DNA of 64,000 nucleotides from the NCBI GenBank assembly GCA_031414595.1, contig JANNVX010000098.1, forward strand, positions 64,001 through 128,000, in the 5' to 3' direction. Origin of the DNA: Deinococcales bacterium (lineage in GTDB: Bacteria; Deinococcota; Deinococci; Deinococcales; JAAFIG01). The notes under the pieces are model-generated. The model ran no database searches. It was not told the DNA's origin and was given only the letters and a program-made list of their open reading frames with translations. Position 1 is the stretch's first letter; each line of letters starts with the position of its first letter. Positions 3,994 through 41,518 of this stretch are shown in pieces. A program made the position numbers and the translations under genes.

Positions 3994-3996
3994 ATA

Positions 3997-4063: not shown

Positions 4064-4078
4064 CTTTGGAGGACACCC

Positions 4079-9455: not shown

Positions 9456-9570
9456 ATTCTCGAGAAGGAGGTGAACCCGTGATGCAAGATTATTTATTTC
9501 AAAAGCTGCCACGCTCGAGCTTTGGGCGGCATTGCGGGTTTAGCTCCAAGTATTCTCGAATTGAATTGAA

Positions 9571-10545
9571 GTGGCGGATATGAAAGAAATTATTGTCCAC
9601 CAAGTCAACATTGCCCATTATCGGTTGCTCGAGCTAACGCTGTTGGCTGACCAAGCCAAACCGTTTTATGATTGGATTGAAAAAACTGCTCGACAAATCA
9701 CAGGCTCGCACTTAACCCTGAATGAATTGCTGCTGACTTGCACAAAAGAACAACTCAAAAGTATTGTGATGGCTTGTTATACCCAAACGACGCAACAAAA
9801 ACCATTTCTGTTTGATGGTGTTGGGCGAGCCTACCCCCATAAAAAAGCCTGTTTCTATTTTTTTGCATGGATGATACGAGATGCACCTCAACAACGACTC
9901 GCGCCACTTATCTCGAGAATGCAAAAACTTGTCAGACTCGAGAAAATAGTAATTGAAACAGATAGTCTAATCGAACTGATTTTCGAGTACAGAACGAATG
10001 TCAAGTCTTTTGAATGGCAAGCTGTTCGTGAGGTCGTGATTGACCGTTTAGAAGGCTCGAGGCGAAGTATCAGTGGTAACAAAATAGAAGCCGATGTGCG
10101 AATTGGTTTAGGAATTGCCTTGCAGTGGTATTACGCGGTTCATGGCAATTATGGTCAGTTCAAAGAAATTCAAATTGCTGATAAGCAAATCAAAGTCGGC
10201 AATCACACCATAGATGTATCTGCGAATTTAATTTTAGAGAACAAACAAAGTAAACAAATTTTTATTCCCGTGAAAACCCGAGAAACCGAAGGCGGCGGGC
10301 ATTCACACTTATTCACTCGAGACATCATGAATGCCATAACAGATATTCAATCAGCCAATTGTTTTATTGTGGCGGTCATCATTGCCGAAAATTGGTCAGT
10401 TCATGAACTCGAGACAATCAAAAATCAAATAGATTTGGTACTGTATTTCAACATGAACCCCAATGTTTTTACGGGTTTTGACCAAGCCTCACAAATACAA
10501 TTTAATCAACTTATCGAAAAAATTCTGCAAGGACAAGCATCATGA
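9571..10545 (+). CDS. Putative type II restriction endonuclease
   Basis: Overlaps the following MTase (ATGA); PD-(D/E)xK-like residues (IDVS...IPVKTRE); inferred from context. Confidence 0.5.
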   Translation: MADMKEIIVHQVNIAHYRLLELTLLADQAKPFYDWIEKTARQITGSHLTLNELLLTCTKEQLKSIVMACYTQTTQQKPFLFDGVGRAYPHKKACFYFFAWMIRDAPQQRLAPLISRMQKLVRLEKIVIETDSLIELIFEYRTNVKSFEWQAVREVVIDRLEGSRRSISGNKIEADVRIGLGIALQWYYAVHGNYGQFKEIQIADKQIKVGNHTIDVSANLILENKQSKQIFIPVKTRETEGGGHSHLFTRDIMNAITDIQSANCFIVAVIIAENWSVHELETIKNQIDLVLYFNMNPNVFTGFDQASQIQFNQLIEKILQGQAS

Positions 10546-11456
10546 ACGGTCAGGTTTTCCTTGGGGATGCTCGAGAGATTGCCGTTAATCTCGAGTATCA
10601 TTCTGTTCAAAGTATTATCACCAGCCCACCCTATTTTGGATTGCGAAATTATGCTGACCAGCCAAGCCCAGCCGAAATTGGACAAGAAGCGACAGTTCAA
10701 GAATATGTGACGAACTTGGTCAGTATTTTCCGCAGCTTAAAACAAGCACTTAAACCTGACGGATTACTCTGGCTTAATTTAGGCGATACATACCGCGAAA
10801 AGTCCTTGCTGGGTATTCCGTGGCGCGTTGCTTTAGCTTTACAAGATGATGGTTGGTTATTGCGTTCGGACATTATTTGGCATAAACCCAACGCCATGCC
10901 CTCGAGTATTAAAAATCGCCCAACTACAGACCATGAGTACATTTTCTTATTTGCGCTCAACCGAGATTATTACTATGATGCCGATGCCATCCGTGAGCCA
11001 CACATTACATTCACTGAGCAATCCAAAATGAAAGGTGGGCGAAATCACTTTGGGAAAGAAGGAGGCACACCCGAAAATGGCAAGAACGCTGGCAATAGTA
11101 ACCTTCATGACGGACGATGGGATCAAGCCTTTCACCCAAAAGGCAGAAACAAACGCACTGTATGGCAAATACCTCTAAGTAAATTTAGAGACTCACACTT
11201 TGCGGTTTTTCCAGAAAAACTTGTTGAAACCTGTATTCTTGCTTCGACTCGAGTGTCTGATGTTATCCTTGACCCATTTGCGGGGTCTGGCACAACTGGT
11301 GTTGTTGCCACAAAATTACAACGCCGATTCATAGGTATAGAACTTGTGAAAAAATATCAAGAAATGGCACAGGCTCGAATAAACCAAGCCAACCCACAAA
11401 CCGATTTATTTAGTGTTCTGACAGCCCAAGAAGAAATGACTCATGAAGCCGCCTAA
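10542..11456 (+). CDS. Site-specific DNA methyltransferase, beta class (probably N4-cytosine)
   Basis: ITSPPY catalytic motif precedes LDPFAGSGTT SAM-binding motif. Confidence 0.9.
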   Translation: MNGQVFLGDAREIAVNLEYHSVQSIITSPPYFGLRNYADQPSPAEIGQEATVQEYVTNLVSIFRSLKQALKPDGLLWLNLGDTYREKSLLGIPWRVALALQDDGWLLRSDIIWHKPNAMPSSIKNRPTTDHEYIFLFALNRDYYYDADAIREPHITFTEQSKMKGGRNHFGKEGGTPENGKNAGNSNLHDGRWDQAFHPKGRNKRTVWQIPLSKFRDSHFAVFPEKLVETCILASTRVSDVILDPFAGSGTTGVVATKLQRRFIGIELVKKYQEMAQARINQANPQTDLFSVLTAQEEMTHEAA

Positions 11457-11483
11457 GTTTAAGATAACTCGAGAAGGAAAACG

Positions 11484-11772
11484 ATGAGCCAAGCCAACCC
11501 AAGTTTTAACCCCACTTTTTGCAAGTGCTGTTCATCATTGCACCATGCCTTATGCTCAGTCCATGCCAAAAAAATCTCGAGAAGAGTTGAAAATTGCAGA
11601 GCAGAATTTCATTGAATTGCTTTGTAAAAATTTTAATGAACCAATAGAAGTGTCTTTTATTGAACTAGATACCAGTGATGAAGAAGCAAACCAGCGATTT
11701 TTAGAGTTTTTCAAGCAAGAGTTACCAAACGATTTTGATAAGTTGTTCTCTTCAGAAAAGGAAAAGGGGTGA
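11484..11772 (+). pseudogene. Small hypothetical gene, apparent +1 frameshift in a T run (or short ORF 11545-11772)
   Basis: RBS plus ATG at 11484 reads MSQANPSFNPTF; removing one T at 11516-11520 joins it in frame to ORF 11545-11772. Confidence 0.35.
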
Positions 11773-12047
11773 GTGAAATGTCTGTGACCATCGAAATTGA
11801 AAAAATCCATGCCAGTGCAATCAGTTTCCCCCGAGATGTGATTGAGGACTCAGAAACTCGAGAATTCAGGATTAAAGTTGTGGGCAACGAATTTGTTATT
11901 TATCCGGCACACATGAAATTCTTTGAAGTTGCCACACCTCAACAACGCGCCAATTTGCTGCTCGAGCGATTAGCGCACAATAAATCCAATCCAGATGCAC
12001 CTCAAATTCCAGATGAAGCTTTACGCCGCGAGAATTTTTACGAATGA
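11769..12047 (+). CDS. Putative antitoxin (VapB-like partner)
   Basis: Small ORF overlapping the PIN gene; C-terminal DEALRRENFYE typical of PIN-toxin partners. Confidence 0.65.
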   Translation: MSEMSVTIEIEKIHASAISFPRDVIEDSETREFRIKVVGNEFVIYPAHMKFFEVATPQQRANLLLERLAHNKSNPDAPQIPDEALRRENFYE

Positions 12048-12496
12048 ATATTTTTTTAGACACCAACATTTTTTTAAGACTGACCGATGAAAACTCGAGT
12101 CAACATGAACTTGTCGTTAAAGCTGTGGCGCAATTACTGGCTCGAGGAGACGAACTTTATTTTGCGCCACAAACAATTGTTGAATTTTGGGCAGTGGCAA
12201 CCAGACCACTACAAGCCAATGGTTTGGGGTTAGATGCCCAAACGATAGAACATAAACGAGAAGAATTTTCTGATGAATATAAAATGCTCGAGGAAACCCC
12301 AGCCTTATATGAAAAGTGGCTCGAGTTGGTCAAGCAACACGCGGTTCAAGGTAAGCAAGTCCACGACACCCGACTTGTGGCACAAATGTTGGTGCATAAT
12401 ATCAATACGATTTTGACAATCAACACGGCGGATTTTAAGCGATTCTCGAACATAACGGCTGTGCATCCAGAGCAAGTGCTAAAAGGTGAAGCATAA
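12044..12496 (+). CDS. vapC: PIN-domain toxin (VapC family)
   Basis: FLDTNI, EFWAVATRP, GKQVHDTRLVA, LTINTADF. Confidence 0.9.
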   Translation: MNIFLDTNIFLRLTDENSSQHELVVKAVAQLLARGDELYFAPQTIVEFWAVATRPLQANGLGLDAQTIEHKREEFSDEYKMLEETPALYEKWLELVKQHAVQGKQVHDTRLVAQMLVHNINTILTINTADFKRFSNITAVHPEQVLKGEA

Positions 12497-12548
12497 AGCC
12501 CAAGCAGAAAGCCAAAAGCCAAAGAGGTGAGTTAATGTCAGTTTTAGA
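12483..12548 (+). repeat. Cassette-junction repeat, copy 1 (type A)
   Basis: AAGGTGAAGCATAAAGCCCAAGCAGAAAGCCAAAAG...GAGGTGAGTTAATGTCAGTTTTAGA. Confidence 0.85.
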
Positions 12549-12729
12549 AATGATTCGAGAAGTTCCAAAATTAACCCATGCAGAGCAAAGTTTATTGCTG
12601 CTCGAGTTGCAAAAATACTTGCAACCACCAGCAGATTTAAGCCAAATTCCAACCAATGGTATAGCCGAGTTATTCCCGTTCTACGAAGCCATTAACGCCA
12701 ACCATGATTTATCCAGAATTGTAAAATAA
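12535..12729 (+). CDS. Small helical partner protein of retropepsin pair 1
   Basis: MSV start after GAGGTGA RBS; paralog of 14893, 20952 and 21632. Confidence 0.7.
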   Translation: MSVLEMIREVPKLTHAEQSLLLLELQKYLQPPADLSQIPTNGIAELFPFYEAINANHDLSRIVK

Positions 12730-12737
12730 GGCAACCA

Positions 12738-13142
12738 ATGAAATCTGTAACCTACCCATACTTACCAAATAGACAAAATTCTCTGATGCCGTATCTGCCC
12801 GTTCAACTCGAGCAGCAAGGTCGGGTTATAGAAACTATGGCGTTGGTAGACAGTGGCGCAGTTTCCAGTATTTTGCCATATTCAATGGGACTAGCCCTAG
12901 GATTAGATTGGCAGTCAGCCCAACAAGGTTTAGATGTGATTGGAGCAGTTGTTTCACCTTCAAAAAATGTTCGTGCGGTACTGCATATCCCGCAATTCTC
13001 GGCACTCGAGACGGGGTTTTCTTGGGTTGAAGATGATAATAAGCCGTTAATTCTTGGGCAGAGGATTTTCTTTTATCAGTTCCAAGTTCAGTTTGACGGT
13101 CGGCAACCAAGTTTTACTTTGACAAGGCAGGAACAAGCATGA
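12738..13142 (+). CDS. Retropepsin-like (clan AA) aspartyl protease, pair 1
   Basis: ALVDSGA catalytic motif; ILGQ..FF motif. Confidence 0.8.
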   Translation: MKSVTYPYLPNRQNSLMPYLPVQLEQQGRVIETMALVDSGAVSSILPYSMGLALGLDWQSAQQGLDVIGAVVSPSKNVRAVLHIPQFSALETGFSWVEDDNKPLILGQRIFFYQFQVQFDGRQPSFTLTRQEQA

Positions 13143-13186
13143 AGCCCAAGCTCGAGCAGAAAGCCAAAAGGGAAGATACAGATGGG
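13134..13186 (+). repeat. Cassette-junction repeat, copy 2 (type B)
   Basis: CAAGCATGAAGCCCAAGCTCGAGCAGAAAGCCAAAAGGGAAGATACAGATGGG. Confidence 0.85.
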
Positions 13187-13203
13187 TTACTCGAGGTCAA
13201 GCC

Positions 13204-14199
13204 ATGATAGATAAATCAGACCGAAATAAAACAATAGAATTATCTGAGGCAGAAAAAATGCTTTACTCAGAACGGTTAAGTCGTTTTGATCAATGTGCAA
13301 CCCAAGCCGATGTACAAAATAAAACCTTAAATCAAGATTTGTTCTCGGTACTCGAGTTTTTACCCACTGGTTTTGTGGATTTGTTGTTTATTGACCCGCC
13401 GTATAATTTAAGTAAAACCTTTAACGAAGTCAGTTTTAAGAAAACCTCGTTTGAAGAGTATGTGATTTGGGTAGACCTTTGGCTGTCCAAGTTGGTGCGA
13501 ACCTTAAAACCAAATGCTTCCGTCTATATCTGCTCGGATTGGCTTTCTTCACCTGCTATTTTTGAAGTTGCAAGACGTTACTTTATTGTCCGTAGTCGAA
13601 TCACTTGGGAACGCGAAAAAGGACGTGGTGCATTGACCAATTGGAAAAATTCATCTGAAGATATTTTGTTTTGTACAGTTTCAGATGAATATACTTTTAA
13701 TGTCGAACAGGTCAAACTCAAGAAAAAAGTGATTGCCCCATACCGCACCGATGATGGAATTCCTAAAGATTGGAGCGAAACCGACGATGGCAATTACAGG
13801 CTGACGCATCCATCTAACCTTTGGACAGACATCACCGTGCCATTCTGGTCAATGCCCGAAAATACTGAGCATCCGACGCAGAAACCCGAGAAACTGCTGG
13901 CTAAAATCATCCTCGCCAGTTCAAATGTTGGCGATATGGTTTTTGACCCATTTTTTGGCTCTGGAACAACCTTGGTGACAGCCAAAAAACTCGAGCGAAA
14001 CTTTTGTGGCGTGGAAATAGACCCATATTATGCTTGTATTTGCCAGAAGCGTCTCGAGATGGCAGAGTTAGACGGTGGCATCCAAGGCTACAGCCAAGGT
14101 GTGTTTTGGGAACGCAATACACTGGCAGAACAAAAATCTGAAGCCCCAAAGCCCAAAAAACGCACTTTGGCTCGAGAGCAACAGGAACAATTCTTATGA
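13204..14199 (+). CDS. Site-specific DNA methyltransferase, beta class (DPPY)
   Basis: FIDPPYN, HPTQKPEKL, FDPFFGSGTT. Confidence 0.92.
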   Translation: MIDKSDRNKTIELSEAEKMLYSERLSRFDQCATQADVQNKTLNQDLFSVLEFLPTGFVDLLFIDPPYNLSKTFNEVSFKKTSFEEYVIWVDLWLSKLVRTLKPNASVYICSDWLSSPAIFEVARRYFIVRSRITWEREKGRGALTNWKNSSEDILFCTVSDEYTFNVEQVKLKKKVIAPYRTDDGIPKDWSETDDGNYRLTHPSNLWTDITVPFWSMPENTEHPTQKPEKLLAKIILASSNVGDMVFDPFFGSGTTLVTAKKLERNFCGVEIDPYYACICQKRLEMAELDGGIQGYSQGVFWERNTLAEQKSEAPKPKKRTLAREQQEQFL

Positions 14200-14837
14200 G
14201 CCAAGTTTTTACCCATGGTTTTGAAACTCGCACCCTCGAGAGGCTGAATGCACTGGCAAAAACCATTCCTGTTTCGATTCTGGGCAGCCCCCGCTCAATT
14301 GGGGATACCATCCAAGATTTAATTGGACAGCACTTTCTCGAGTTAATGGGTAAGGAAATTTGTAAGACATACTCGAGTGAATCAGCACGGCGTTCAATGG
14401 CAGATGTGGCTTTTGAAGATTTTGATGGTAATTTTTATTCGGTGGATATTAAAACCCATAATTTAGGTACAAAATTTAATATGCCAAATTTGACTTCTGT
14501 GGAACGTTTAGCACGGCTTTACGAAAGTGACAAAGATTATTTTTGTGTTCTGCTGATTGCTTATGGTGTCGAAAACTCGAGTATTACTTTTGAAAGCGCT
14601 AAATTTGTGCCGATTGAACATATAGACTGGAATTGTTTAACCATAGGTGCGTTGGGTTGGGGGCAAATTCAAATTGCCAATTCAAACAAGTTTTTAACGA
14701 ATGCCACACAAACCAGAAAAGCATGGATGATTGAACTTTGCGATACGCTACTTGGTTTTTATCCTCGAGAAATTCTCAAAATTAACGAACGAATTGAGCA
14801 TTTTGTAGCCATTCGTCAGAAATGGATGGAGCGTTGA
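14196..14837 (+). CDS. Putative type II restriction endonuclease
   Basis: Overlaps the MTase; ADVAF...VDIKTH fits PD-(D/E)xK. Confidence 0.6.
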   Translation: MSQVFTHGFETRTLERLNALAKTIPVSILGSPRSIGDTIQDLIGQHFLELMGKEICKTYSSESARRSMADVAFEDFDGNFYSVDIKTHNLGTKFNMPNLTSVERLARLYESDKDYFCVLLIAYGVENSSITFESAKFVPIEHIDWNCLTIGALGWGQIQIANSNKFLTNATQTRKAWMIELCDTLLGFYPREILKINERIEHFVAIRQKWMER

Positions 14838-14845
14838 TATGATGT

Positions 14846-14906
14846 CAAGCATGAAGCCCAAGCTCAAGAAGAAAGCCAAAGAGGTGAGTTAAATGTCAGT
14901 TTTAGA
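14846..14906 (+). repeat. Cassette-junction repeat, copy 3 (type A)
   Basis: CAAGCATGAAGCCCAAGCTCAAGAAGAAAGCCAAAGAGGTGAGTTAAATGTCAGTTTTAGA. Confidence 0.85.
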
Positions 14907-15105
14907 TTATGTGCAACAAGCTAAAAATTATAGTTTAGACGAACGTCAAGAAATCATTGCCAGTCTCCAAGAACAAATTTTTGAGCAGCGACAAAAAACC
15001 ATGATAAAACCACGAAAAGATGGGGTGTTTGAAATTTGGTCTCCGACTGTAGATGCTGCTTCGATGGAAAAACTTCAAGAACGAGCAAGGCAGCGAAAAC
15101 TGTGA
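14893..15105 (+). CDS. Small partner protein of retropepsin pair 2
   Basis: MSVLDY...FEIWSP; stop overlaps the protease GTG. Confidence 0.7.
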   Translation: MSVLDYVQQAKNYSLDERQEIIASLQEQIFEQRQKTMIKPRKDGVFEIWSPTVDAASMEKLQERARQRKL

Positions 15106-15527
15106 GCCGAATAGCCCGATTTCCGTATGCAGAATCAGCTACCAATGTGCGTATGCCGTATATAGATGTGCTTATTGATTCTGGCGAAGTAGCAGTTCGA
15201 GTCAAAGCTCTACTCGATTCAGGCGCAATGGTCAATGTCATTCCAAAGCAAGTAGGAGAACGGCTAAACTTAAACTGGGAAAAAGGAGTAGATATTGCCC
15301 TAGGCGGTAACTTAGGCAAAGCACCTGCTCGAGCCTTTTATTTGAATTGTACAGTACAGGGTTTAGAAGTGACACAACTAGAACTTAATTGGTCAATGCT
15401 CGAGGATATTCCTGTTATTTTTGGGCAGTTTGATTTTTTCCAGAATTTCGATGTGTGTTTTTCGTACTCAGAAAATGAAATTAGTGTGCGACCTAGGCGA
15501 GTACAACAGAATCAAGGTGAAGCATGA
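15102..15527 (+). CDS. Retropepsin-like aspartyl protease, pair 2
   Basis: ALLDSGA; IFGQFDFFQNFDVCF; GTGA overlap start. Confidence 0.8.
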   Translation: MSRIARFPYAESATNVRMPYIDVLIDSGEVAVRVKALLDSGAMVNVIPKQVGERLNLNWEKGVDIALGGNLGKAPARAFYLNCTVQGLEVTQLELNWSMLEDIPVIFGQFDFFQNFDVCFSYSENEISVRPRRVQQNQGEA

Positions 15528-15571
15528 AGCCCAAGCTCGAGCAGAAAGCCAAAAGGGAAGACACAGATGGG
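15514..15571 (+). repeat. Cassette-junction repeat, copy 4 (type B)
   Basis: AAGGTGAAGCATGAAGCCCAAGCTCGAGCAGAAAGCCAAAAGGGAAGACACAGATGGG. Confidence 0.85.
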
Positions 15572-15668
15572 TGTTGTGTAAGGTGGGAAAAGCCCCTCCA
15601 CAAGTAGATGTACTCAAGAAATTACAAAAATCAGGGAACAGCTCAAACGTTTTCAGAAGGTTAAAATA

Positions 15669-16037
15669 ATGGTTGATAAAATGAGTCAGAACAGAAACGT
15701 AAAAAGTGCATATAGTGCAACTCGCATTTCAATTAATTATCAAACCTATGTGGGCGCTCGATATATCGGTTGTGGGCTGACATTGCATTATCTTCCAGAT
15801 TCAGAATTACAAGTCAGTTGTACAGCAGAATTTCCTGTAAATGACAACTACCGAATTAATGTTTGTAAAGCGATAGAAAAAACTTGTCAAGAAAAGTTGT
15901 TTGTAGGACAATTTATTGTTGAAGAAATAGATTTTCATCCTATCTACTCGAGCCAAAATGCTTTTGAAAACGCCGCTCAACAAGCTGTTTTAGCAATTCT
16001 GGGCTTACTTTCTTTTAAGCCTCTCACAATGGAGTGA
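15669..16037 (+). CDS. Hypothetical protein
   Basis: AT-rich ORF whose end carries the nuoG RBS. Confidence 0.5.
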   Translation: MVDKMSQNRNVKSAYSATRISINYQTYVGARYIGCGLTLHYLPDSELQVSCTAEFPVNDNYRINVCKAIEKTCQEKLFVGQFIVEEIDFHPIYSSQNAFENAAQQAVLAILGLLSFKPLTME

Positions 16038-16039
16038 CT

Positions 16040-18406
16040 ATGCCTAAAGTAATTGTGAATGATCGTCAAATCGAAGTCCCTAATGGTGCATCTGCTTTGG
16101 ATGCGGTTTTCCAAGCAGGTTTCGATGTGCCTTATTTCTGCTCTAACGAGTATCTCTCGCCGATTGGTGCGTGTCGAATGTGCCTTGTCGAAGCTGGCTC
16201 GCCGCGTAAAAATCCCGATGGTTCTTGGATTCTCGAGGATGGTGTTCCAAAACTGTTTTACTTCCCCGGTACAGTCGCAAGCTGCACACTGGCAACTTCC
16301 GAAGGCATGGTCATTAAAACCACCACTGAGGCGGCTGTCAAAGCCCAAGCTGGGATGATGGAATTCACGCTGATTAACCATCCGCTTGATTGCCCCACCT
16401 GCGATAAGGGTGGCGCGTGTGAACTCCAAGACCGAGCTTACGAGTATGGTTACGGCGAAGCGCGTTTTGAATTTACTCGCCGTCATGCCGATAAGCACCA
16501 TGCCCTGTCTGATTTTATTGTGCTGGATAAGGAACGCTGCATTCATTGCAAACGCTGTGTGCGTTACTTCGAGGAAATCCCGGGCGAAGAAGTGCTGGAT
16601 TTCATCGAACGCGGTGGGCATACTTTTATAGATTCGTACCAATCCGAAGACTTGGCGGGCGCAAAACTCGGTAATTTTAGCGGCAATATTAACGACCTCT
16701 GCCCTGTAGGAGCGCTGCTCGATAACGTCTCGAGATTCCGTGGGCGCAACTGGGAATATGACCGCACCCAAACCACCGATATGTCCAACGCCGATGGCTC
16801 GAGTATTTGGGTGGATGCTCGAACGGGGCGAATCGAACGCATTCGCGCCGCTCACAACAAAGAAGTTAATGAAATTTGGATTTCCGACGCACAGCGTTTT
16901 GGGCATGAATGGGTGGATGCCGATGCTCGAGTCCGCACGCCACTGATTCGTAAAAATGGCAAACTCGAGCCAGCCACCTTTGATGAAGCTGTTGAAGTGA
17001 TTGCAAAAGCCAATCTCGAGCCGAGCAAATTAGGTTTGTATACCAGTGCTGACATCACCCTCGAGGAAGGTGTGGCGCTTGAGTCGTTTGCTAAGACCAT
17101 TGCGACCATCAATGTAGACCATTTTCCGCGTTATAACAGCGCTCTGAGTGGTGTTGCTCGAGCCACCTTTACCGACCTTGCCAAAGCGGACGCAATTATC
17201 GTGATTGGTGCAGACTTGTACGAAGAATCTGGCACAGCCTACTTGCGAATCGAGGAGAGCTTGAAGGGTGTTATCACCTCCGACACGCAATTTAATCACG
17301 GTGCGCCTTTGGCAGATTTGCGTCTCAAAGAACGCATGGACAGAAAGCGCGGTAAACTGGCGGTCTTTGCACCAATTCCAGTGCAACAAATGAGCCACGC
17401 GGGAATCTCGAGCCTGTATGCAGTAGGTGCTGAACTCGAGCTTTTGGCGCAGATTAACCAAGCCAAATCGGGTAATGACTCGAGCAACGCCCAAGCCAAC
17501 GCTGCTGGCAAACTGCTCTCGAGTGCCAAAAACCCTGTGATTGTGCTGGGTAGCTTTGCGCTTGCCTCAGATGCCGAAAAAGTGTTGGCAGCCGCTAAGA
17601 AACTCGGTGGAAAAATCATGCCGATTCCAGCAGGTGCAAACGGCGCTGGACTCGAGACTTTAGAACTTGTACCAACCAAAAATGGGCGCAGTTTTGGGCA
17701 GTGGGACGGCTTAAAAGGCTTGTTCGTTTCGGGTAGTGCCATGACCAAGCGTCCAAAATCGCTCGAGATGTTGGTGGTTCACACCCATACCCTGACAGGC
17801 GCGGCACTCGAGGCGAATGTGGTGCTGCCAGCCCTGACTGCCTACGAGAAACGCGGCACAACCATGAATCTCGAGGGGCGCTTGTTGCCTTTGGCTGGGG
17901 CAGCCGTGGATGGTGGGCAAGGCGTGGACATGATTGGTGCGTTGCAAGTCTTATCCGATGCCATGAGTGCTAAACTCGAGATTCGTGGAACGCGCAGCGC
18001 CCAACGAATCCTGCAAGATAAATTTGGTCTCGAGATGGACAAAATTGCCGTTGAAGGTGCGTTTCCTGTGAAAACTGTCTCGAGTCGTTCAGCGCCAATT
18101 GTGCGCTCCACCACGGGCGAAACCGTACTGCTTGTGCCAAGAATGTGGTCTGAAAACATGCTCTCGAGCCAGCGCATCCGTGAAAGTGTCGGCGCAGATT
18201 ACTTAACTGTCAACTCGAGTGATGCCCAAAAAATGGGTGTGCGGGATGGCTTTACTTTAGAGCTAGAAGTCAACGGCAAACCTCGAGCCGTGACCGTTCG
18301 GATAGATGATGCGGTGTCTGCGCCAACGCTGCCCGCTTTGAATTCAGATTTGTCTGGGGCGCTTTCGAGTGTCAAAATAGCGGTCATGGCAGGAGGGGAT
18401 GATTAA
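16040..18406 (+). CDS. nuoG: NADH-quinone oxidoreductase subunit G
   Basis: [47 protein letters not shown]. Confidence 0.97.
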
Positions 18407-19048
18407 ATGAAAAAATGGTTACTGATACTGGTTTTACCCCTCTTTGCAGCTTGTTCAACTTTTGGTGGCGGCGAGCCTTGGGCGCGACAATTGCTTGCTC
18501 CGTCAGATAACACTTACCGTCAAGTCTGTGACTACACCCTGAGCAATCAACTTACTTCTAATCAACTCAGTAATTTTGGGGCAGCCGTCATTAAAACCGA
18601 GCAACTGGGGGATTTTAATGTTTTTAGTTCCACTTTCTTAGTGGGATTCACTTGCGGTATCCTCGAGCCACTTGCCAGAATCAATCCATCAGGAAAAGCC
18701 CAGTTGCTGCAAAGTAAAGAATTGGCGGATTTATCTCGCTTAGGGCGTTTTGTTGTTTCTACTCGAGTTCGGGTTAAAAACACCAGTCTGGAGAATAAAA
18801 AACTCACCCTAACTTTAGAAGATGAAAAGGGCGAAACCGTGCTGCAATTAAAACCAGAACCATTTATTGCGGGAACAGACGAAGAACCTCGCATTAGTTT
18901 TGCCCTGATTCCAGCCGATTACACCCCCACGCAATTACAAGCCTTTGAGAAAGTCCAAGCCATGTCTTTCAAAATTCAATTTGGAGAAAGCGAAGCCACT
19001 TTTCGTTTAACCCCCAAGGATTTTGGGGCTTTTCAGGTCAGTAAATAA
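18407..19048 (+). CDS. Hypothetical lipoprotein
   Basis: MKKWLL...LFAAC lipobox. Confidence 0.7.
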   Translation: MKKWLLILVLPLFAACSTFGGGEPWARQLLAPSDNTYRQVCDYTLSNQLTSNQLSNFGAAVIKTEQLGDFNVFSSTFLVGFTCGILEPLARINPSGKAQLLQSKELADLSRLGRFVVSTRVRVKNTSLENKKLTLTLEDEKGETVLQLKPEPFIAGTDEEPRISFALIPADYTPTQLQAFEKVQAMSFKIQFGESEATFRLTPKDFGAFQVSK

Positions 19049-19057
19049 ATTACGAGG

Positions 19058-19120
19058 TTCGGATTTTCGCGGGATACTTTGAGTGTCAAAATAGCAGTGA
19101 TGGCAGGAGGCGATGATTAG
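19058..19120 (+). repeat. Diverged duplicate of the nuoG 3' end (18343-18406)
   Basis: GAGTGTCAAAATAGCAGTGATGGCAGGAGGCGATGATTAG vs GAGTGTCAAAATAGCGGTCATGGCAGGAGGGGATGATTAA. Confidence 0.9.
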
Positions 19121-19122
19121 GT

Positions 19123-19308
19123 ATGACAATGAAAATGGTGTACTGGGAAGATGACGGTTGGCTGGTTGGTCGTTTAATTGATTATCCAAATGTGGCAACT
19201 CAAGCCGAAACCCTTGAAGAACTCGAGGAGAACATTAAGGATGCCTTTGAACTGATGTATCTCGAGGATGTACCAGCCAATCACAAGTTTAAGGAAGTTA
19301 CCATTTGA
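19123..19308 (+). CDS. hicB: HicB-family antitoxin (short)
   Basis: WEDDGWLVG...YPNVATQAETLEELEENIKDA. Confidence 0.85.
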   Translation: MTMKMVYWEDDGWLVGRLIDYPNVATQAETLEELEENIKDAFELMYLEDVPANHKFKEVTI

Positions 19309-19496
19309 AGCACCGTGACTTGATTCGCTTACTTGTTCAAAATGGTTGTTTTCTAAAACGAAACGGCAAAAAGCACGATTTGTACATCAATCCAGCAACA
19401 GGCGCATCATCGGCAGTTCCACGACATTCGGAAATCAAAGAGACAATGGCACGAATCATTCTGAAAGAATTAAGTATTGAAATAAAAAACAATTAG
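19305..19496 (+). CDS. hicA: HicA-family toxin
   Basis: LVQNGCFLKRNGKKHDLY.NP...VPRHSEI. Confidence 0.88.
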   Translation: MKHRDLIRLLVQNGCFLKRNGKKHDLYINPATGASSAVPRHSEIKETMARIILKELSIEIKNN

Positions 19497-19539
19497 GTGA
19501 TGCTCGAGATTCAAACGTTTTGCTAAAAGAGGTGAAGAA

Positions 19540-19761
19540 GTGAATCCAAATCCAATACGTCCGCCGCAGCAATTTCTTGTAGACCATCATGGAATAAAAA
19601 CCCATGTTATTTTGCCGCTCGAGGAATACGAGGAAATGATTGACCAGCTTCTTGATGCAAGGGATGCGGTCGAAATGCCAAAATTAGTCGTAGAAGCTCG
19701 AGCCAATAGTGAGAGGATAACGATTGAAGAACTTCGCAAACAATATGGACTCGAGCCATAA
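19540..19761 (+). CDS. Orphan antitoxin-like protein
   Basis: QFLVD..G.KTHVILPLEEYEEM...ITIEELRKQYGL pattern of RelE/ParE-partner antitoxins. Confidence 0.55.
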   Translation: MNPNPIRPPQQFLVDHHGIKTHVILPLEEYEEMIDQLLDARDAVEMPKLVVEARANSERITIEELRKQYGLEP

Positions 19762-19801
19762 GAGAAAAAATGAAGTCTATGAACGCTAATAAGGAGTACA
19801 A

Positions 19802-20926
19802 ATGCTGATTGAAATTTTAATTGTTTTACTAAAAGCCGTTGGTGTAGCCCTTGGGCTACTCACCACTTTCGCCTACATGACCCTAATCGAACGCCGTTTG
19901 CTTGGGCGTTTCCAAATGCGTCACGGTCCAAATCGGGTTGGTGGTCCGCTGGGTTTGGCTCAACCACTTGCCGATGCCATCAAAAGCATTTTCAAAGAGG
20001 ATGTCAACATCACCCTAGCCGATAAGTTCGTCTATTGGATTGCGCCACTTATCGCCATCACCATGTCCTTAACCGCTTTCGGAGCAATTCCAGCCGGTCC
20101 TGCTGGTAGTTTATTCGGCACTGACCCTTGGGTGTTTAACCTCGATATTGGCTTGCTGTTTATTCTTGGAACAACCAGCATGGGTGTCTACGGCATTTTT
20201 CTGGGTGGTTGGGCTTCGGGCAGCAAATACCCGCTTTTGGGTGGGCTTCGTGCCAGCGCCCAAGTGATTAGTTACGAACTCGGTATGGGGCTTAGTGTCT
20301 TGGGGCTACTGATTCTAGTGGGCAGCATGAACTTGCTCGAGATTGTCAAATGGCAAACCGAAAATGGCTGGTTAATTCTGTTTCAGTGTGTGGCTTTCAT
20401 GACTTTTTTTGTTTCCGCCTTTGCCGAAACCAACCGCTCACCGTTTGACCTTCCAGAAGCCGAACAAGAATTGGTGGCAGGGTTTCTAACCGAATACTCG
20501 AGCATCAAATGGGCATTGTTTCAAATGGCGGAGTACGTGGCAATGATTACGGCTTCGGCAGTCATGGCAACCTTGTTCTTTGGTGGCTACAAAGGACCAA
20601 ATCTCGAGATAGCTGGGTTTAACATTGGCAATATTCCATTTATTTGGTTGTACGCTAAAATTGGTGTGTTTTTGTTTGTGTTTATCTGGGTTCGGGCAAC
20701 GCTCCCTCGGATGAGGTACGACAAGCTGATGCAATTCGGTTGGAAGTTCTTGTTTCCTGTGGCACTAGGTAACACGCTTGTGGCAGCAGGTTTCAGAGGC
20801 TACTTCCCCAAAGATACCCCTTGGATTTTAGGTGGGATTAGCTTGGTTGCTCTCATTATTATTTTTGCTGTGACCTCGAGAAACCCTGTGCGACCCGCGC
20901 CTGCTCGAGCCAATGCTGGCGACTGA
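19802..20926 (+). CDS. nuoH: NADH-quinone oxidoreductase subunit H
   Basis: [46 protein letters not shown]. Confidence 0.97.
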
Positions 20927-20959
20927 TAGAATGATTTTGGAGGTGAATGAAATGAGTGT
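20901..20959 (+). repeat. nuoH 3'-end/RBS repeat, copy 1
   Basis: CTGCTCGAGCCAATGCTGGCGACTGATAGAATGATTTTGGAGGTGAATGAAATGAGTGT. Confidence 0.9.
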
Positions 20960-21164
20960 GATGCAAATGGTTGAAAGTGTAAGGGAGTTATCCATAGCCG
21001 AAATTGAACAATTACAAGATGCGCTCGAGAAAGAACGTTTGATGCAACTCAGTAAAATAGCTGCTAAACGTTGGGCTGGTAAGACTTTTGAATTGTGTTT
21101 CCCCTCGAGCAAAGATGTACCTGTCCACCCTTTTCAAGTTTTTCTCGAGAATCAAAAACCATGA
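20952..21164 (+). CDS. Small partner protein of retropepsin pair 3
   Basis: MSVMQM after GGAGGTG RBS; ATGA overlap with the protease. Confidence 0.7.
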   Translation: MSVMQMVESVRELSIAEIEQLQDALEKERLMQLSKIAAKRWAGKTFELCFPSSKDVPVHPFQVFLENQKP

Positions 21165-21577
21165 ATTACGTTAAATTTCCGTATCAACCAATCAAAGATG
21201 ATTTATTCATGCCTTATGCGTGGGTGCGTTTGTCCTTTGGTAATACTTTTTGGGATGAATGGGCTTTGGTTGATAGTGGTGCGGAAATCAATGTTATTCC
21301 GTTTAGTGTTGGAGTAAAATTGGGTCTTGATTGGAATACATCTGAAGATGGTCCAACAATTGGTGGTAGTGCTTCTGGTGCTACGAAAACTGTTGAACTT
21401 ACTGTGACTATCGGTTCTTTTACAAATGTGTCAATGAGTTTTTGTTGGCTCAGTCATGATAATGTTAGGGTTTTACTTGGAGAACAAGATTTTTTTGAGA
21501 ATTTTGCTGTTTATTTTGATTTACAAAACAAAGAATTTGCTTTGTTTCAATATGCAAAGAAACAGGATGTTGAGTAG
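21161..21577 (+). CDS. Retropepsin-like aspartyl protease, pair 3
   Basis: ALVDSGA; LLGEQDFFENFAVYF. Confidence 0.8.
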   Translation: MNYVKFPYQPIKDDLFMPYAWVRLSFGNTFWDEWALVDSGAEINVIPFSVGVKLGLDWNTSEDGPTIGGSASGATKTVELTVTIGSFTNVSMSFCWLSHDNVRVLLGEQDFFENFAVYFDLQNKEFALFQYAKKQDVE

Positions 21578-21580
21578 CCT

Positions 21581-21639
21581 CTGCTCGAGCTAAAGCTGGT
21601 AGCTGATAGAATGATTTTGGAGGTGAATGAAATGAGTGT
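21581..21639 (+). repeat. nuoH 3'-end/RBS repeat, copy 2
   Basis: CTGCTCGAGCTAAAGCTGGTAGCTGATAGAATGATTTTGGAGGTGAATGAAATGAGTGT. Confidence 0.9.
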
Positions 21640-21853
21640 CGGACAAATAATTACACAACTTAAAAGTCTCTCGAGAAATGATTTGGTCTTAATCGTGAAT
21701 GAGGCACAGAAAACACTTCATGAACTTGACCCGATTGCATCCAATCATCTTGACTTGTCCAAAATGCCAAAGAACCCTGAAATTTGGTCGCCTTGGGATG
21801 AATACCAAGCCGCTGATGATATGGAAAGATTACTCGCTGAGGGAAAATTGTGA
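21632..21853 (+). CDS. Small partner protein of retropepsin pair 4
   Basis: MSVGQI...EIWSPWD; GTGA overlap with the protease. Confidence 0.7.
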   Translation: MSVGQIITQLKSLSRNDLVLIVNEAQKTLHELDPIASNHLDLSKMPKNPEIWSPWDEYQAADDMERLLAEGKL

Positions 21854-22272
21854 GTGATGTAGAGCGTTTTTCTTACATAATTAAGGGCGAAATGGGTAAA
21901 ATGCCGATTATTCCTATTCGTTTCTTAGATAATAATAAAGCCATTGAAGAACTAGCGCTTTTAGATTCTGGTGCAGCCGTGAGTATTTTACCGTACAGAA
22001 TGGGTTTAGCATTAAAGCAGGATTGGAATAATCCAAAATTATATGAGGCTAGGCTAGGTGGCGTGTTTCGGCATTTAACTGGAAAATTTGTGAAAGTGTC
22101 ATTGCAAATTGGGCAACTCGAGCCTCGAGATGTTGCATTCGTGTGGATGGAATCTGAAAATGTGCCGCTTATTCTTGGTAATGGTAATTTCTTTCAGATT
22201 TTTGATGTGTGTTTTTCACGCTTAAACAATGAAATTTCGGTGCGTTTAGCTCGAGCCAAAGCTGGTAGCTGA
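21850..22272 (+). CDS. Retropepsin-like aspartyl protease, pair 4
   Basis: ALLDSGA; ILGNGNFFQIFDVCF; C-terminus ARAKAGS supplied by the nuoH-like repeat. Confidence 0.8.
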   Translation: MSDVERFSYIIKGEMGKMPIIPIRFLDNNKAIEELALLDSGAAVSILPYRMGLALKQDWNNPKLYEARLGGVFRHLTGKFVKVSLQIGQLEPRDVAFVWMESENVPLILGNGNFFQIFDVCFSRLNNEISVRLARAKAGS

Positions 22273-22278
22273 TAGAAT
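22249..22278 (+). repeat. nuoH 3'-end repeat, copy 3
   Basis: GCTCGAGCCAAAGCTGGTAGCTGATAGAAT. Confidence 0.85.
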
Positions 22279-22296
22279 AAAATTGGGGGAGTATTT

Positions 22297-22731
22297 ATGC
22301 CAAAAAGTAAAAATCCGTATAGCAAAGAGGTAAAAGAGAAGGCAATAAGAAAAGTTGCAGAAGGTTTGTCTTACGCTGAAGTAGGACGCGAAATGGGGAT
22401 TCCATATTCGACTATTAGTAATTGGTCTAAGGAAGGTGGTATTGAAAGTAAACATAGTAATGGCAAGGGGCAGGCTTTGTACAATATGATGCGGGTCTGT
22501 ACAACCTTGTTTCAAACAATAAGTCAAATCCATAGCTATGCTTATGGCACTTTTCAAAACAGTAGGCACTATAAACATCTACGAGACGCTGCAAAAAAGG
22601 GCTTACTTGAAAGAAGAATAGATGGATTAGATGAGTCATTTAAATTAACAAAACTTGGCAAAGAATGGTTAAAAGCTAATGAAAATACTTTTGAAGAAAA
22701 ATATCAAGAATTAATTTTAAAGCGAGCGTAA
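22297..22731 (+). CDS. Helix-turn-helix protein (transposase-like N-terminal HTH)
   Basis: YSKEVKEKAI...SYAEVGREMGIPYSTISNW. Confidence 0.65.
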   Translation: MPKSKNPYSKEVKEKAIRKVAEGLSYAEVGREMGIPYSTISNWSKEGGIESKHSNGKGQALYNMMRVCTTLFQTISQIHSYAYGTFQNSRHYKHLRDAAKKGLLERRIDGLDESFKLTKLGKEWLKANENTFEEKYQELILKRA

Positions 22732-22769
22732 TTTGACTCTTAATTGCTGTATTATCGGAGGTTCTTAAA

Positions 22770-24004: not shown

Positions 24005-24013
24005 CCCAAAATC

Positions 24014-24082
24014 ACCGTAGGGGCGAGACTGTCTTGACCCTAAACACGCACCTAGCGGGCAGGGTCGCTTGCCTCGCCCAAC
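24014..24082. repeat. GTAG-type REP-like element (nuoJ/nuoK)
   Basis: ACCGTAGGGGCGAG...CTCGCCCAAC; near copy of 3997-4063. Confidence 0.8.
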
Positions 24083-24094
24083 TGAGAGGACATC

Positions 24095-26375: not shown

Positions 26376-26510
26376 CGTAGGGGCGACGGAGCTTCAAGCG
26401 ACGGGGGTCGCCCTTGATGTGCAAAAGCGCAATGCTTTGGCGGGTTGGGCGAGGCATACCTGTCTTGACCCAATACACGCACCTCACGGGCAGGGTCGCT
26501 CGCCCCTACG
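26376..26510. repeat. REP doublet / REPIN-like element (nuoL/nuoM)
   Basis: Terminal inverted repeats CGTAGGGGCGA...TCGCCCCTACG; internal TGTCTTGACCC..ACACGCACCT..CGGGCAGGGTCGC shared with the other copies. Confidence 0.85.
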
Positions 26511-40613: not shown

Positions 40614-40688
40614 TCACCTCCTCGAGTCAAACCAAACGATGAACATCCAATTCCCCAGAAAGCAATTTGGGAAGCAAAAAATCTCGAG
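40614..40688 (-). repeat. Diverged duplicate of the hsdS 3' end (41506-41580)
   Basis: Encodes RDFLLPKLLSGELDVHRLV* vs RDSLLPKLLSGELDVGNLV* in hsdS. Confidence 0.92.
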
Positions 40689-40745
40689 CGTAGCTTGTTC
40701 AACAGTATTTTCGTCAAAAGAAGGCATTGCAAAGATTATCGCACA
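40683..40745 (-). repeat. Diverged duplicate of the hsdR 5' end (40188-40251)
   Basis: Encodes MPSFDENTVEQATLE vs [15 protein letters not shown], plus shared upstream sequence. Confidence 0.92.
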
Positions 40746-40754
40746 AAAGAAAAA

Positions 40755-41482: not shown

Positions 41483-41518
41483 CTAACCAAGATGCTCACA
41501 AATGCTCACCTCCTCGAG

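Follow-up and report, generated by a model that had tools for sequence, protein, structure and literature searches.

Integrative elements that enter at the 3' end of a gene bring a replacement end with them and can accrete in tandem, as in the case of phage 21 and e14 in icd, the islands in tRNA genes and the ICE/CIME arrays. A second type of event, insertion with long target duplication, is described for complexes of restriction-modification (RM) genes and was found mostly in naturally competent species, according to the survey cited here (Furuta, Abe and Kobayashi, 2010; PMC2853133). In cyanobacteria, rearrangements have been described at copies of the palindrome HIP1 (GCGATCGC), and this literature gives indications of site-specific or illegitimate recombination and of precise insertion at HIP1 (Elhai, 2015, PMC4390886; PMC5861425).

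The DNA analysed here, a stretch of 64,000 nucleotides that we call the window, carries the complex I operon of an uncultured clade of Deinococcales. Between its nuoG and nuoH genes lies a second copy of the nuoG 3' end (19078-19120), which is probably a displaced end that has ceased to be coding, forming the tail half of a duplication-type junction between two stacked allelic versions. The junction is composed as follows.

16034..18406, + strand: nuoG, NADH dehydrogenase subunit G (Pfam Molybdopterin, Fer4_Nqo3, NADH-G_4Fe-4S_3, Fer2_4)
18364..18406, + strand: functional nuoG tail, copy 1 of the repeat, with a degenerate CTCGAG (TTCGAG, 18364-18369), the last 13 codons and TAA
18407..19048, + strand: lipoprotein-like gene, 213 aa, N-terminus MKKWLLILVLPLFAAC, lipobox read by eye
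19049..19077, + strand: spacer from the lipoprotein stop to the orphan tail, perhaps the decayed remnant of a nuoH 5' head
19078..19120, + strand: orphan nuoG tail, copy 2 of the repeat, with TTTGAG, 13 codons and TAG
19123..19308, + strand: hicB-like antitoxin gene, 61 aa (Pfam UPF0150, 18.9 bits, below the cut-off of 27.3)
19305..19496, + strand: hicA toxin gene, 63 aa (Pfam HicA_toxin PF07927, E = 6.7e-9, 36.2 bits, cut-off 27)
19540..19761, + strand: Phd/RelB-like antitoxin gene (PhdYeFM 19.6 bits, RelB-like 17.8 bits, both below cut-off)
19802..20926, + strand: nuoH (Pfam NADHdh, E = 2.6e-113)

We compared this junction with those of 13 relatives for the type of gap, and searched 12 gaps (the window and 11 relatives) for orphaned nuoG tails. 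As in the long-target-duplication insertions described in PMC2853133, the insert is absent from the same site in relatives (L006 and L012), the flanking direct repeats exceed 30 bp and correspond to a single-copy target sequence (here 42 nt, 90% identity), and the insert has no transposase or integrase, with repeats that can overlap a gene 3' end. Unlike the R and M genes that define that survey (PMC2853133), the cargo flanked by the nuoG repeats consists of a lipoprotein gene, and hicBA follows the second copy. Further differences from this class are that the nuoG repeats have the look of two alleles and not of a single target that was duplicated, that the junctions can also carry the head of the downstream gene, and that an essential operon has here been entered repeatedly at a site between two of its cistrons. 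With the 3'-end integrative elements, the locus shares the displaced end of a conserved gene downstream of an insert, a copy that differs mainly at silent sites and the ability of several units to pile up between gene-end copies; unlike them, it has no recombinase gene that we could find in the 64-kb window, its repeats derive from the ends of several unrelated genes and from the head of one gene, and its units measure 0.5-0.9 kb. Integron arrays are similar in their short promoter-less cassettes, often toxin-antitoxin genes, lying in one orientation behind an upstream promoter. Unlike integrons, the window has no intI among the 72 ORFs scanned with Pfam, and the boundary repeat is a gene tail without an attC-like hairpin, since in single-strand DNA folding neither strand of 19040-19130 did better than its shuffled versions (z = 0.31 and -0.65).

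The last 13 codons of nuoG with their stop (18368-18406, AGT GTC AAA ATA GCG GTC ATG GCA GGA GGG GAT GAT TAA) recur at 19082-19120 with four altered codons, GCA, GTG, GGC and TAG. All four differences fall at third codon positions and are silent, so that the same 12 residues are read from both copies. A repeat search returned the pair as a direct repeat of 42 nt (18364-18405 and 19078-19119, family D18) with 90% identity, and its local alignments reached scores of 65 and 64, whereas shuffled sequences attained at most 26 and 24. Only 26 of the 117 possible single substitutions of the tail are silent, and in a post hoc simulation (100,000 runs per setting) four random substitutions were all silent with a probability of 0.0018, 0.0025 and 0.0032 for a transition bias of 1, 2 and 4, respectively. 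A fifth difference, just 5' of the 13 codons, is non-silent (TCG at 18365-18367, TTG at 19079-19081). The copy and its four silent-only differences, as reported by the initial annotation, were thus confirmed by direct reading and by the repeat search, with a chance expectation of about 0.002-0.003 for the silent-only pattern, but the weaker similarity to nuoG that it had seen ~25 nt further upstream was not significant (best local alignment of 19049-19081 with the 60 nt before the nuoG tail, score 7.5, p = 0.12, 300 shuffles). Silent-only divergence is no general property of the orphans in this set: amino-acid changes were present in 7 of the 8 orphan-versus-functional comparisons other than the nuoG pair of the window, and an internal stop in one.

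Among true nuoG ends, that of L002 is nearest to the orphan (37/39 positions), followed by L005 (36/39), the window's own (35/39), L001 (34/39), L004 (32/39), L006 (31/39), L010 (27/39), L042 (25/39) and six others (19-24/39). The orphan codons GCA and GGC are the states of the true ends in L002, L004 and L005; the states GTG and TAG occurred in none of the 13 true nuoG ends examined. In both L010 and L042, hicBA comes immediately after a true nuoG, and the orphan tail, hicB and hicA of the window (19094-19462) are colinear with the true tail, hicB and hicA of L010 (12359-12724; 72% over 376 columns). The initial annotation had proposed that the copy came from a functional nuoG allele of another strain, which brought hicBA along as its own downstream cargo. 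A functional origin is favoured by the match to L002 exceeding that to the window's own end and by the shared GCA and GGC, but it finds no counterpart for GTG and TAG. An association of hicBA with such an allele is favoured by the adjacency and colinearity just described, but the nuoG ends concerned are among those less like the orphan, and a search of the relatives for the orphan's exact allele followed by hicBA recovered the adjacency but no sampled genome with both. The further proposal that cassettes are being stacked held up well, since stacking is recurrent and is seen in the mirror order of L010, in orphan nuoH tails and in the hsd operon (see below). Taken together, the original inference was largely right, and its interpretation partly supported. 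Because the nearest relatives differ from the window by about 10% in nuoG DNA, "another strain" is indistinguishable from an older polymorphism; at the protein level NuoG is 92-96% identical to L001, L002, L004 and L005, and its start (ATG 16040) is conserved in all nine relatives displayed. A recombination breakpoint inside nuoG was considered and rejected: there was no clear identity switch near the 3' end in comparison with these four relatives, the sliding identity to which was noisy (75-95% in 150-nt windows, in-register part).

Within this Deinococcales clade, the cassettes found at the nuoG-nuoH junction vary. Of the 13 relatives, two (L006 and L012) have an empty site, with the stop of nuoG directly adjoining or overlapping the start of nuoH, and two more (L011 and L047) have a gap of about 60 nt; in the remaining nine the gap spans 594-1539 nt, filled by lipoprotein ORFs alone (L004, L007, L008), small toxin-antitoxin-like ORFs and a lipoprotein ORF (L001, L002), three small ORFs (L005), just a 48-aa ORF (L009) or a series that begins with hicBA (L010, L042). 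Only the window and L010, of the 12 gaps searched, have an orphan nuoG tail, the tail being single-copy in 10 of 11 relatives; in the two gaps of 60 nt and in the 8 occupied gaps besides these, the scores were below those of shuffles. L042 shows the order nuoG-hicBA-lipoprotein without a scar, the hicA stop overlapping the lipoprotein ATG. This scarless arrangement and the rarity of orphans indicate that cassettes also enter or settle without duplication.

In the window, 18407-19801 contains the lipoprotein-like, hicB, hicA and phd-like ORFs only, and no mobility gene. The lipoprotein gene begins on the base right after the nuoG stop, and a GGAGG in the functional nuoG tail lies 10 nt before its ATG. 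Its product had no family match in Pfam, NCBIfam or PADLOC, and in the ESM Atlas it fell into unnamed clusters only, with recognition below the usual level. It aligns at 19-26% identity with the lipoprotein-like ORFs that occupy this junction in L001, L002, L004, L007, L008 (two copies) and L010, with C16, W25, C41, S74, C83 and F165 invariant, and only one close homologue (98%, on 1 contig) was found among 5.8 billion proteins; the gene is fast-evolving. The hicB and hicA genes overlap by 4 nt and are predicted to form a type II toxin-antitoxin pair, with HicA scoring above its domain cut-off. The HicB-like protein is 75% identical to the L010 ORF directly behind nuoG and HicA is 61% identical to the L010 copy; homologues of the former carry the JGI name HicB family, and a 98% identical HicB occurs on 6 contigs of up to 4.7 kb. 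The Phd/RelB-like gene has no partner toxin gene behind it; its product shares 53-55% identity with ORFs from the corresponding gap of L001 and L002, in both of which an 85-aa ORF comes next. We found no promoter-like or terminator-like site on the + strand of 18300-19800, and no match at blastn sensitivity between 18343-19801 and 72,556 plasmids or 50,697 phages. A literature search on toxin-antitoxin genes inside nuo operons gave nothing relevant by title and abstract start.

We propose that the few bases separating the stop of nuoG from the start of nuoH serve as a site where promoter-less genes, among them lipoprotein and toxin-antitoxin genes, lodge and are swapped. One version of the junction would have read nuoG tail, lipoprotein and nuoH head (of the form ATGATTCTCGAGATACTT), and a second nuoG tail, hicBA(-phd) and nuoH. 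A join of the DNA just 3' of the lipoprotein gene, probably the first nuoH codons, to the nuoG tail of the second version would have yielded the order nuoG, lipoprotein, decayed nuoH head plus orphan nuoG tail, hicBA, phd and nuoH, and the two tails would differ only at silent sites because their separate history was mostly spent inside working nuoG genes. Such a recombination event may have been an unequal exchange between copies, or the integration by homology of a circularised tail-to-head fragment, perhaps after natural transformation. In the spacer, TTCGCGGGATACTT matches TTCTCGAGATACTT of the L001 and L002 nuoH heads at 12 of 14 positions (p = 0.012 and 0.018 per test), a fit no worse than that of the stretch to nuoG; comparison with nuoH heads gave p values of 0.006-0.034 in 4 of 14 correlated tests and above 0.3 in the other 10, with p = 0.98 for the window's own head. 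This is weakly suggestive of a decayed nuoH head of the L001/L002 type in these 29 nt. The window's own head, ATGCTGATTGAA, is without CTCGAG, a motif present at codons 3-4 in 6 of the 13 relatives listed. The orphan tail, for its part, would provide hicB, as in its former place, with a Shine-Dalgarno sequence, the GGAGG of its Gly-Gly codons 13 nt before the hicB ATG, and with a stop 2 nt before that ATG, so that hicB would stay translated from the operon transcript. Both units would have retained a nuoG tail as the ribosome-binding site of their first gene.

A mirror order is found in L010 (OZ252252.1, a 5.09-Mb record titled 'chromosome: 1'), where nuoG is followed first by hicBA, then by a fusion of an orphan nuoH head with an orphan nuoG tail, and after that by the lipoprotein gene and nuoH. 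The head (12753-12780, after hicA) is 92.9% identical to the real one over 28 nt, and the tail (12826-12864) matches at 36/39, differing from the L010 nuoG tail in two non-synonymous codons and one synonymous codon. Head and tail make up one open chimeric ORF of 34 codons (MILEILIT...VGVAVMAGSDD*), which starts 2 nt after the hicA stop and ends with a stop that overlaps the lipoprotein ATG; the robust 39-nt repeat does not start at a CTCGAG. The window itself has further orphan heads and tails.

21581..21606, + strand: orphan nuoH tail 1, repeat family D1, behind the first PDC-M52-like pair
22249..22272, + strand: orphan nuoH tail 2, repeat family D1, forming the present 3' end of the second Asp-protease-like ORF
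40614..40754, - strand: hybrid junction in the type I restriction operon, repeat families D7 and D12, between the NYN cassette and the HTH cassette

At the hybrid junction, an orphan hsdR head (40754-40683) meets an orphan hsdS tail (40693-40614) at one CTCGAG (40683-40688). Orphan nuoH tails lie behind cassettes in 4 of 11 genomes, namely the window (twice), L002, L009 and L047.

CTCGAG occurs 372 times in the 64 kb, versus 8.2 expected from shuffles (45-fold over-representation), and at 4.2-10.6 per kb in the nuo loci of 16 related Deinococcales genomes, versus 0-0.3 in 21 loci titled Deinococcus. Within the 64 kb and the nuo-operon loci, its many-fold, clade-wide excess is that of a highly iterated palindrome. 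Like HIP1, as portrayed in the work cited above, it is tens of times over-represented across a clade, inside genes and in all frames; unlike HIP1, it is a different 6-mer in a different phylum. We found no link of CTCGAG to such abundance in a literature search. The methyltransferase genes of the window are two of the beta class (10542-11456 and 13204-14199) and the type I hsdM. An origin of the excess in very-short-patch repair was rejected, because the one-step variants CTTGAG and CTCAAG were not specially depleted (O/E 0.79). An intact CTCGAG occupies the position homologous to 18364-18369 in L001, L002, L004 and L005, and the 8 of 48 boundaries counted in this connection stem from few and partly related events. 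These sites may have acted as joints; the repeat boundaries in the window read TTCGAG and TTTGAG, so that a CTCGAG joint at this place would be deduced from the relatives only. A wider conception, which we consider doubtful, is that of an integrase-free cassette system, in which CTCGAG sites inside gene heads and tails would act as joints, tail-cassette-head modules would be cut or paired, circularised and re-inserted, and promoter-less defence and toxin-antitoxin genes would be stacked between the cistrons of essential operons, each with its own ribosome-loading pad.

The recurrence of the scars could also be explained by site-specific accretion, in which a recombinase encoded elsewhere would use the nuoG 3' end as attachment site, each cassette bringing a replacement tail and displacing the old one downstream, in the manner of the integrative elements that enter at gene 3' ends. 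Inserts are indeed flanked by 3'-end direct repeats that recur at the same places (the nuoG tail in the window and L010, the nuoH tail in the four genomes named above), and the two nuoG orphans begin at nearly the same codon, about -13. We nevertheless think this unlikely. The Pfam scan of 72 window ORFs revealed neither an integrase nor a resolvase family, the only mobile-element matches being an IS3 OrfA-like HTH (22297-22731) and a partial Y1_Tnp (42764-43468). The sequences repeated are no fewer than four (the tails of nuoG, nuoH and hsdS and the head of hsdR), which argues against a single att site. Their lengths moreover vary from 35 to 81 nt, and the orphan heads of downstream genes beside orphan tails in L010 and the hsd operon are the signature of a duplication junction, not of an attP arm.

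Quite unlikely, in our estimation, is a long target duplication in situ, whereby 42 nt of the resident nuoG end were doubled at insertion of the lipoprotein gene (or of hicBA) and then drifted, the silent-only pattern being due to luck or to constraint on a ribosome-binding region. This class of event is described for RM genes without a mobility gene, including a case of 46-bp repeats overlapping a gene 3' end (PMC2853133), and other orphans of this study do carry amino-acid changes. Against it stand the low probability of four silent changes, the GCA and GGC states shared with true ends of L002, L004 and L005, an orphan nearer to L002 than to its own genome, the colinearity of orphan and hicBA with true nuoG and hicBA in L010, and a probable orphan head that resembles the nuoH head of L001/L002 rather than the window's own.

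An assembly artefact, with two co-occurring strains that carry different cassettes chained into one contig, would fit the fact that the clade is known here from metagenome-assembled genomes only and that the two tails look like two alleles. It is very improbable: the left flank of the orphan is unique sequence other than nuoG, which leaves the two units without a long shared word to link them, and the same architecture occurs in the independent assemblies of L010 (the 5.09-Mb record), L002, L009 and L047 and at two other places in the window. Translation and selection of the orphan as a peptide, either as a 13-codon mini-ORF from TTG 19079 or as a lipoprotein extension by read-through of the TAA, has hardly any likelihood, for although the divergence is silent-only, the orphan is in the frame of the lipoprotein ORF with no further stop than that TAA before the tail, and the L010 counterpart is an open ORF with an ATG and an SD-like context, the L010 orphan has two non-synonymous codons, the other comparisons show the changes and internal stop noted above, the homologues of the lipoprotein stop at that same place in the alignment and have no extension of this sort, and the chance of being in frame is 1/3.

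If the reading as a junction between two stacked allelic versions is true, essential operons would not be closed units in this lineage, and the few bases between two complex I genes would be a docking site for the exchange and piling up of genes for toxin-antitoxin systems, restriction and candidate defence functions, with the operon itself providing transcription and translational coupling. Orphan gene tails and heads would then be datable scars from which one can reconstruct the order and source of events, something that small insertions without an integrase rarely allow. The recombination role of cyanobacterial HIP1 is a question that has stood since the 1990s, and confirmation of the CTCGAG link would assign to highly iterated palindromes a concrete function in recombination.

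RM genes are absent between nuoG and nuoH. The cassette restriction gene at 9580-10545 had no relative in the PDB, and that at 14196-14837 gave a chance-level match only. The nuoF-nuoG gap contains a type II RM pair, recognised by PADLOC as REase_II (E = 1e-86) and MTase_II (E = 1e-93).

The 3' end of nuoG occurs twice in the window, once in the functional gene and once as an orphan tail in front of hicBA. The nuoG ORF ends at 18368-18406 with AGT GTC AAA ATA GCG GTC ATG GCA GGA GGG GAT GAT TAA, and direct reading shows a second copy at 19082-19120, differing by GCA, GTG, GGC and TAG. A repeat search of the window recovered the two as a 42-nt direct pair of 90% identity (18364-18405 / 19078-19119, repeat family D18), with local alignment scores of 65 and 64 versus shuffle maxima of 26 and 24. 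All four differences fall at third codon positions and both copies have the same 12-residue peptide, bearing out the proposal of the initial annotation that the copy differs only silently; the weaker similarity that it described further upstream is no better than chance (p = 0.12). Silent changes account for 26 of the 117 single substitutions possible in this stretch, and the probability that four random substitutions would all be silent is 0.0018-0.0032 in a post hoc simulation (100,000 runs per setting, three transition biases). One further, non-silent difference, TCG versus TTG, lies immediately 5' of the repeated codons, where the window has TTCGAG and TTTGAG and the relatives L001, L002, L004 and L005 have CTCGAG. 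The orphan lies in the nuoG-nuoH gap, which contains four genes:

18407-19048: lipoprotein-like gene, its first base next after the nuoG stop
29-nt spacer, between the lipoprotein-like gene and the orphan nuoG tail
19123-19308: hicB, starting 2 nt past the orphan TAG
19305-19496: hicA (Pfam HicA_toxin, 36.2 bits)
19540-19761: Phd/RelB-like gene, the last ahead of nuoH

A consensus scan of the plus strand from 18300 to 19800 found no promoter-like or terminator-like site, and these inserts thus appear to ride on the operon transcript. No toxin gene accompanies the Phd/RelB-like gene (region 19540-19801). Behind its homologue in L001 and L002 come an 85-aa ORF, which is split in L002, and next the lipoprotein gene; the window may therefore have lost both by deletion.

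The window falls in an uncultured clade of Deinococcales. A NuoG query against 185,579 species-representative genomes returned 47 loci (L numbers), with identities to the window of 96% (L001), 95% (L002, L005), 92% (L004), 84% (L006), 76% (L010, a 5.09-Mb record titled 'chromosome: 1') and 68-71% (L007-L009, L011, L012, L042, L047); at the DNA level nuoG diverges by about 10% even from the closest relatives. The nuoG-nuoH junction, compared in 13 relatives (not including L003, L015 and L043, which stop within nuoG), is highly variable:

L006, L012: no gap, the nuoG stop touching or overlapping the nuoH start
L011, L047: gap of about 60 nt
L009: 594-nt gap, sole ORF 48 aa
L004, L007: one lipoprotein gene
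L008: two lipoprotein genes
L001, L002: small toxin-antitoxin-like ORFs, then a lipoprotein gene
L005: three small ORFs
L010, L042: hicBA directly after nuoG, then a lipoprotein gene

The lipoprotein-like proteins belong to a single family, in which certain Cys and Trp positions are conserved; that of the window shares only 19-26% identity with other members and has a single near-identical match among 5.8 billion proteins.

The initial annotation had derived the orphan from a functional nuoG allele of another strain, with hicBA as its cargo, and predicted a relative in which such an allele is followed directly by hicBA. Both halves of this prediction were found, but in different genomes, since orphan-like true nuoG ends occur in L002 and a colinear nuoG-hicBA arrangement in L010. 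The orphan matches the true end of L002 at 37/39 positions and that of L005 at 36/39, compared with 35/39 for its own genome, and it shares its GCA and GGC codons with the true ends in L002, L004 and L005, but its GTG and TAG are absent from all 13 true ends examined. As for the cargo, window 19094-19462 (orphan tail, hicB, hicA) is colinear with L010 12359-12724 (true tail, hicB, hicA), aligning at 72% over 376 columns, with a shorter alignment to L042; the true nuoG ends of L010 and L042, however, match the orphan at only 27/39 and 25/39. Leaving aside the donor and the direction of transfer, the inference was largely right.

L010 also holds a mirror case, in the order nuoG, hicB, hicA, nuoH-head copy, nuoG-tail copy, lipoprotein gene, nuoH:

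12753-12780: orphan nuoH head, 92.9% of 28 nt versus the real head at 13496-13523
12826-12864: orphan nuoG tail, 36/39 versus 12349-12387
12758-12862: open chimeric ORF of 34 codons, nuoH head plus nuoG tail (MILEILITKALSTPPEALSESLIVGVAVMAGSDD*)

The chimeric ORF begins with an ATG 2 nt 3' of the hicA stop and ends in a TGA that overlaps the lipoprotein ATG, and it may be a translational relay bridging the two. A junction of a downstream-gene head with an upstream-gene tail is the residue of a tandem-duplication-type event, and as the 'duplicated' units carry different cargo, this event brought together two allelic versions of the site. The window shows the opposite order, with the lipoprotein gene first and hicBA second. 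Its 29-nt spacer is similar to the nuoH head in L001 and L002 (TTCGCGGGATACTT versus TTCTCGAGATACTT, 12/14, p = 0.012 and 0.018) and has no likeness to its own nuoH head (p = 0.98); because 4 of 14 tests fell below 0.05 and the tests are correlated, this likeness is suggestive only. In L009, L011, L042 and L047, AGATTCTCGAGGTGGC(A/T)TGA stands directly 5' of the nuoH ATG (20-30 nt upstream). It looks like a nuoH-type head (ATTCTCGAG) plus a short tail with a CTCGAG joint, and so may be an older scar, i.e. a leftover head or tail copy.

Scars are also found at other genes. The type I restriction operon on the minus strand of the window has the order hsdM, Y1_Tnp-like ORF, hsdS, NYN gene (PADLOC HEC-09), HTH gene, hsdR. 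The last 20 hsdS codons, from CTCGAG to just beyond the stop, are repeated ahead of the HTH gene, and the first 15 hsdR codons plus 22 nt upstream, with CTCGAG at the end, are repeated just before this orphan hsdS tail, the two orphans sharing one CTCGAG (40683-40688):

40614-40754 and 41506-41586, minus: hsd head/tail junction between the NYN (HEC-09) and HTH cassettes
42764-43468: ORF with a partial IS200-like Y1 transposase match, between hsdM and hsdS

The orphan hsdS tail keeps the conserved LLPKLLSGEL motif and differs at variable residues. Cassettes are followed by a copy of the nuoH tail in 4 of 11 genomes examined (the window, twice, L002, L009 and L047), and the repeat starts 1-3 nt before CTCGAG in the window and exactly at CTCGAG in L009 and L047. 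Over nine orphan-versus-functional comparisons, differences number 10, 11 and 22 at codon positions 1, 2 and 3, an excess that fits a divergence partly older than orphaning. Amino acids change in seven of the nine, and an internal stop interrupts one orphan, indicating that orphans are not protected as coding sequence. We read the nuoG orphan of the window, the cleanest case, as a young scar between two alleles. Among 12 nuoG-nuoH gaps searched, nuoG-tail orphans were found only in the window and L010, and L042 has nuoG-hicBA-lipoprotein without a scar; the process that left the small scar in the window nevertheless seems common in this clade.

The comparisons show a variable junction, an orphan that agrees with real alleles, hicBA next to nuoG in other genomes, and the existence of head-plus-tail junctions. 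We infer that two versions of the nuoG-nuoH junction were joined in series, which could occur by unequal exchange between genome copies, or through a circularised tail-to-head fragment that integrated by homology, perhaps following DNA uptake from a relative. Deinococcus is known for natural competence, polyploidy and fragment reassembly. The nuoG tail contains GGAGG through its Gly-Gly codons and its end adjoins the next start codon in every genome compared, so that a unit keeping the tail would keep the putative ribosome-loading region of its first gene. As the first gene of hicBA is the antitoxin, tail-preserving joins would be those favoured for survival.

This scar-forming process has been described only in part. 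Among described classes, insertion with long target duplication comes closest; it concerns restriction-modification genes without a mobility gene, flanked by repeats of 46 to several hundred bp that sometimes overlap a gene 3' end (PMC2853133). The nuoG case agrees with it on three criteria but lacks restriction-modification cargo, and differs in its allelic-looking repeats and head-plus-tail junction. The process at nuoG is somewhat like that of integrative elements which supply a substitute gene end and pile up in tandem, but here no recombinase was found among the 72 window ORFs scanned and four different sequences serve as repeats. An integron was rejected because the window has no intI and no attC-like fold.

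CTCGAG is the commonest hexamer of the window, with 372 sites (5.8 per kb) where dinucleotide-preserving shuffles predict 8.2, an excess of about 45-fold, and every reading frame contains it. CCTCGAGG is rare (3 sites), TTCGAG mildly enriched (O/E 1.5) and CTAGAG depleted (0.11). The nuo loci of 16 related Deinococcales genomes (L001-L012, L015, L042, L043, L047) have 4.2-10.6 sites per kb, versus 0-0.3 in 21 loci titled Deinococcus. In 24 local direct-repeat pairs from 12 clade sequences, CTCGAG is intact in both copies at 8 of 48 boundaries, versus about 5% expected per boundary; as the number of events is small and some are related, and a motif under maintenance may persist while its flanks decay, we treat this tie to repeat boundaries as a lead. 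Our literature search found no mention of CTCGAG at such abundance; a parallel is the cyanobacterial HIP1, for which one report suggests links to recombination (PMC4390886).

The 14-gene complex I operon (nuoA to nuoN by Pfam, plus strand) carries inserted genes at four junctions, the three besides nuoG-nuoH holding defence-type inserts:

5964-7252, nuoD-nuoE: two Uma2 genes (PADLOC PDC-S03)
9480-16037, nuoF-nuoG: twelve ORFs, including a type II restriction-modification pair (9580-11456), a PIN toxin module, a second methyltransferase with a 213-aa partner, and two small-ORF plus Asp-protease-like pairs (PADLOC candidate system PDC-M52, PDC-M52B)
20927-22769, nuoH-nuoI: two more PDC-M52-like pairs (four in the operon) and an HTH gene, IS3 OrfA-like

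The nuoG ORF is listed from GTG 16034; the conserved start is ATG 16040 (ATGCCTAAAGTAAT...) in 9/9 relatives printed (window 16034-16042). NuoG (residues ~720-790) and NuoH (residues 329-374) have C-terminal extensions in this clade: the NuoG match of loci titled Deinococcus stops at residue 709-723 of 790, and the Pfam domain of NuoH reaches only residue 328 of 374. The repeated nuoG and nuoH tails fall inside these extensions. Four cassettes (small inserted genes or gene sets) in the nuoF-nuoG gap share an end, ...GGTGAAGCAT(A/G)A then AGCCCAAGC(TCGAG)CAGAAAGCCAAA, which gives unrelated ORFs the same 'GEA*' end, and a REP-like 45-84-nt element with the stem GGGGCGAG...CTCGCCC occupies three intergenic spots of the operon (repeat families D4/D5):

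12477-12530, 13129-13187, 14841-14899, 15514-15572: shared cassette-end element
L001 6984-7026, 7613-7663: two copies of the same element
3992-4075, 24009-24092, 26460-26504: REP-like element
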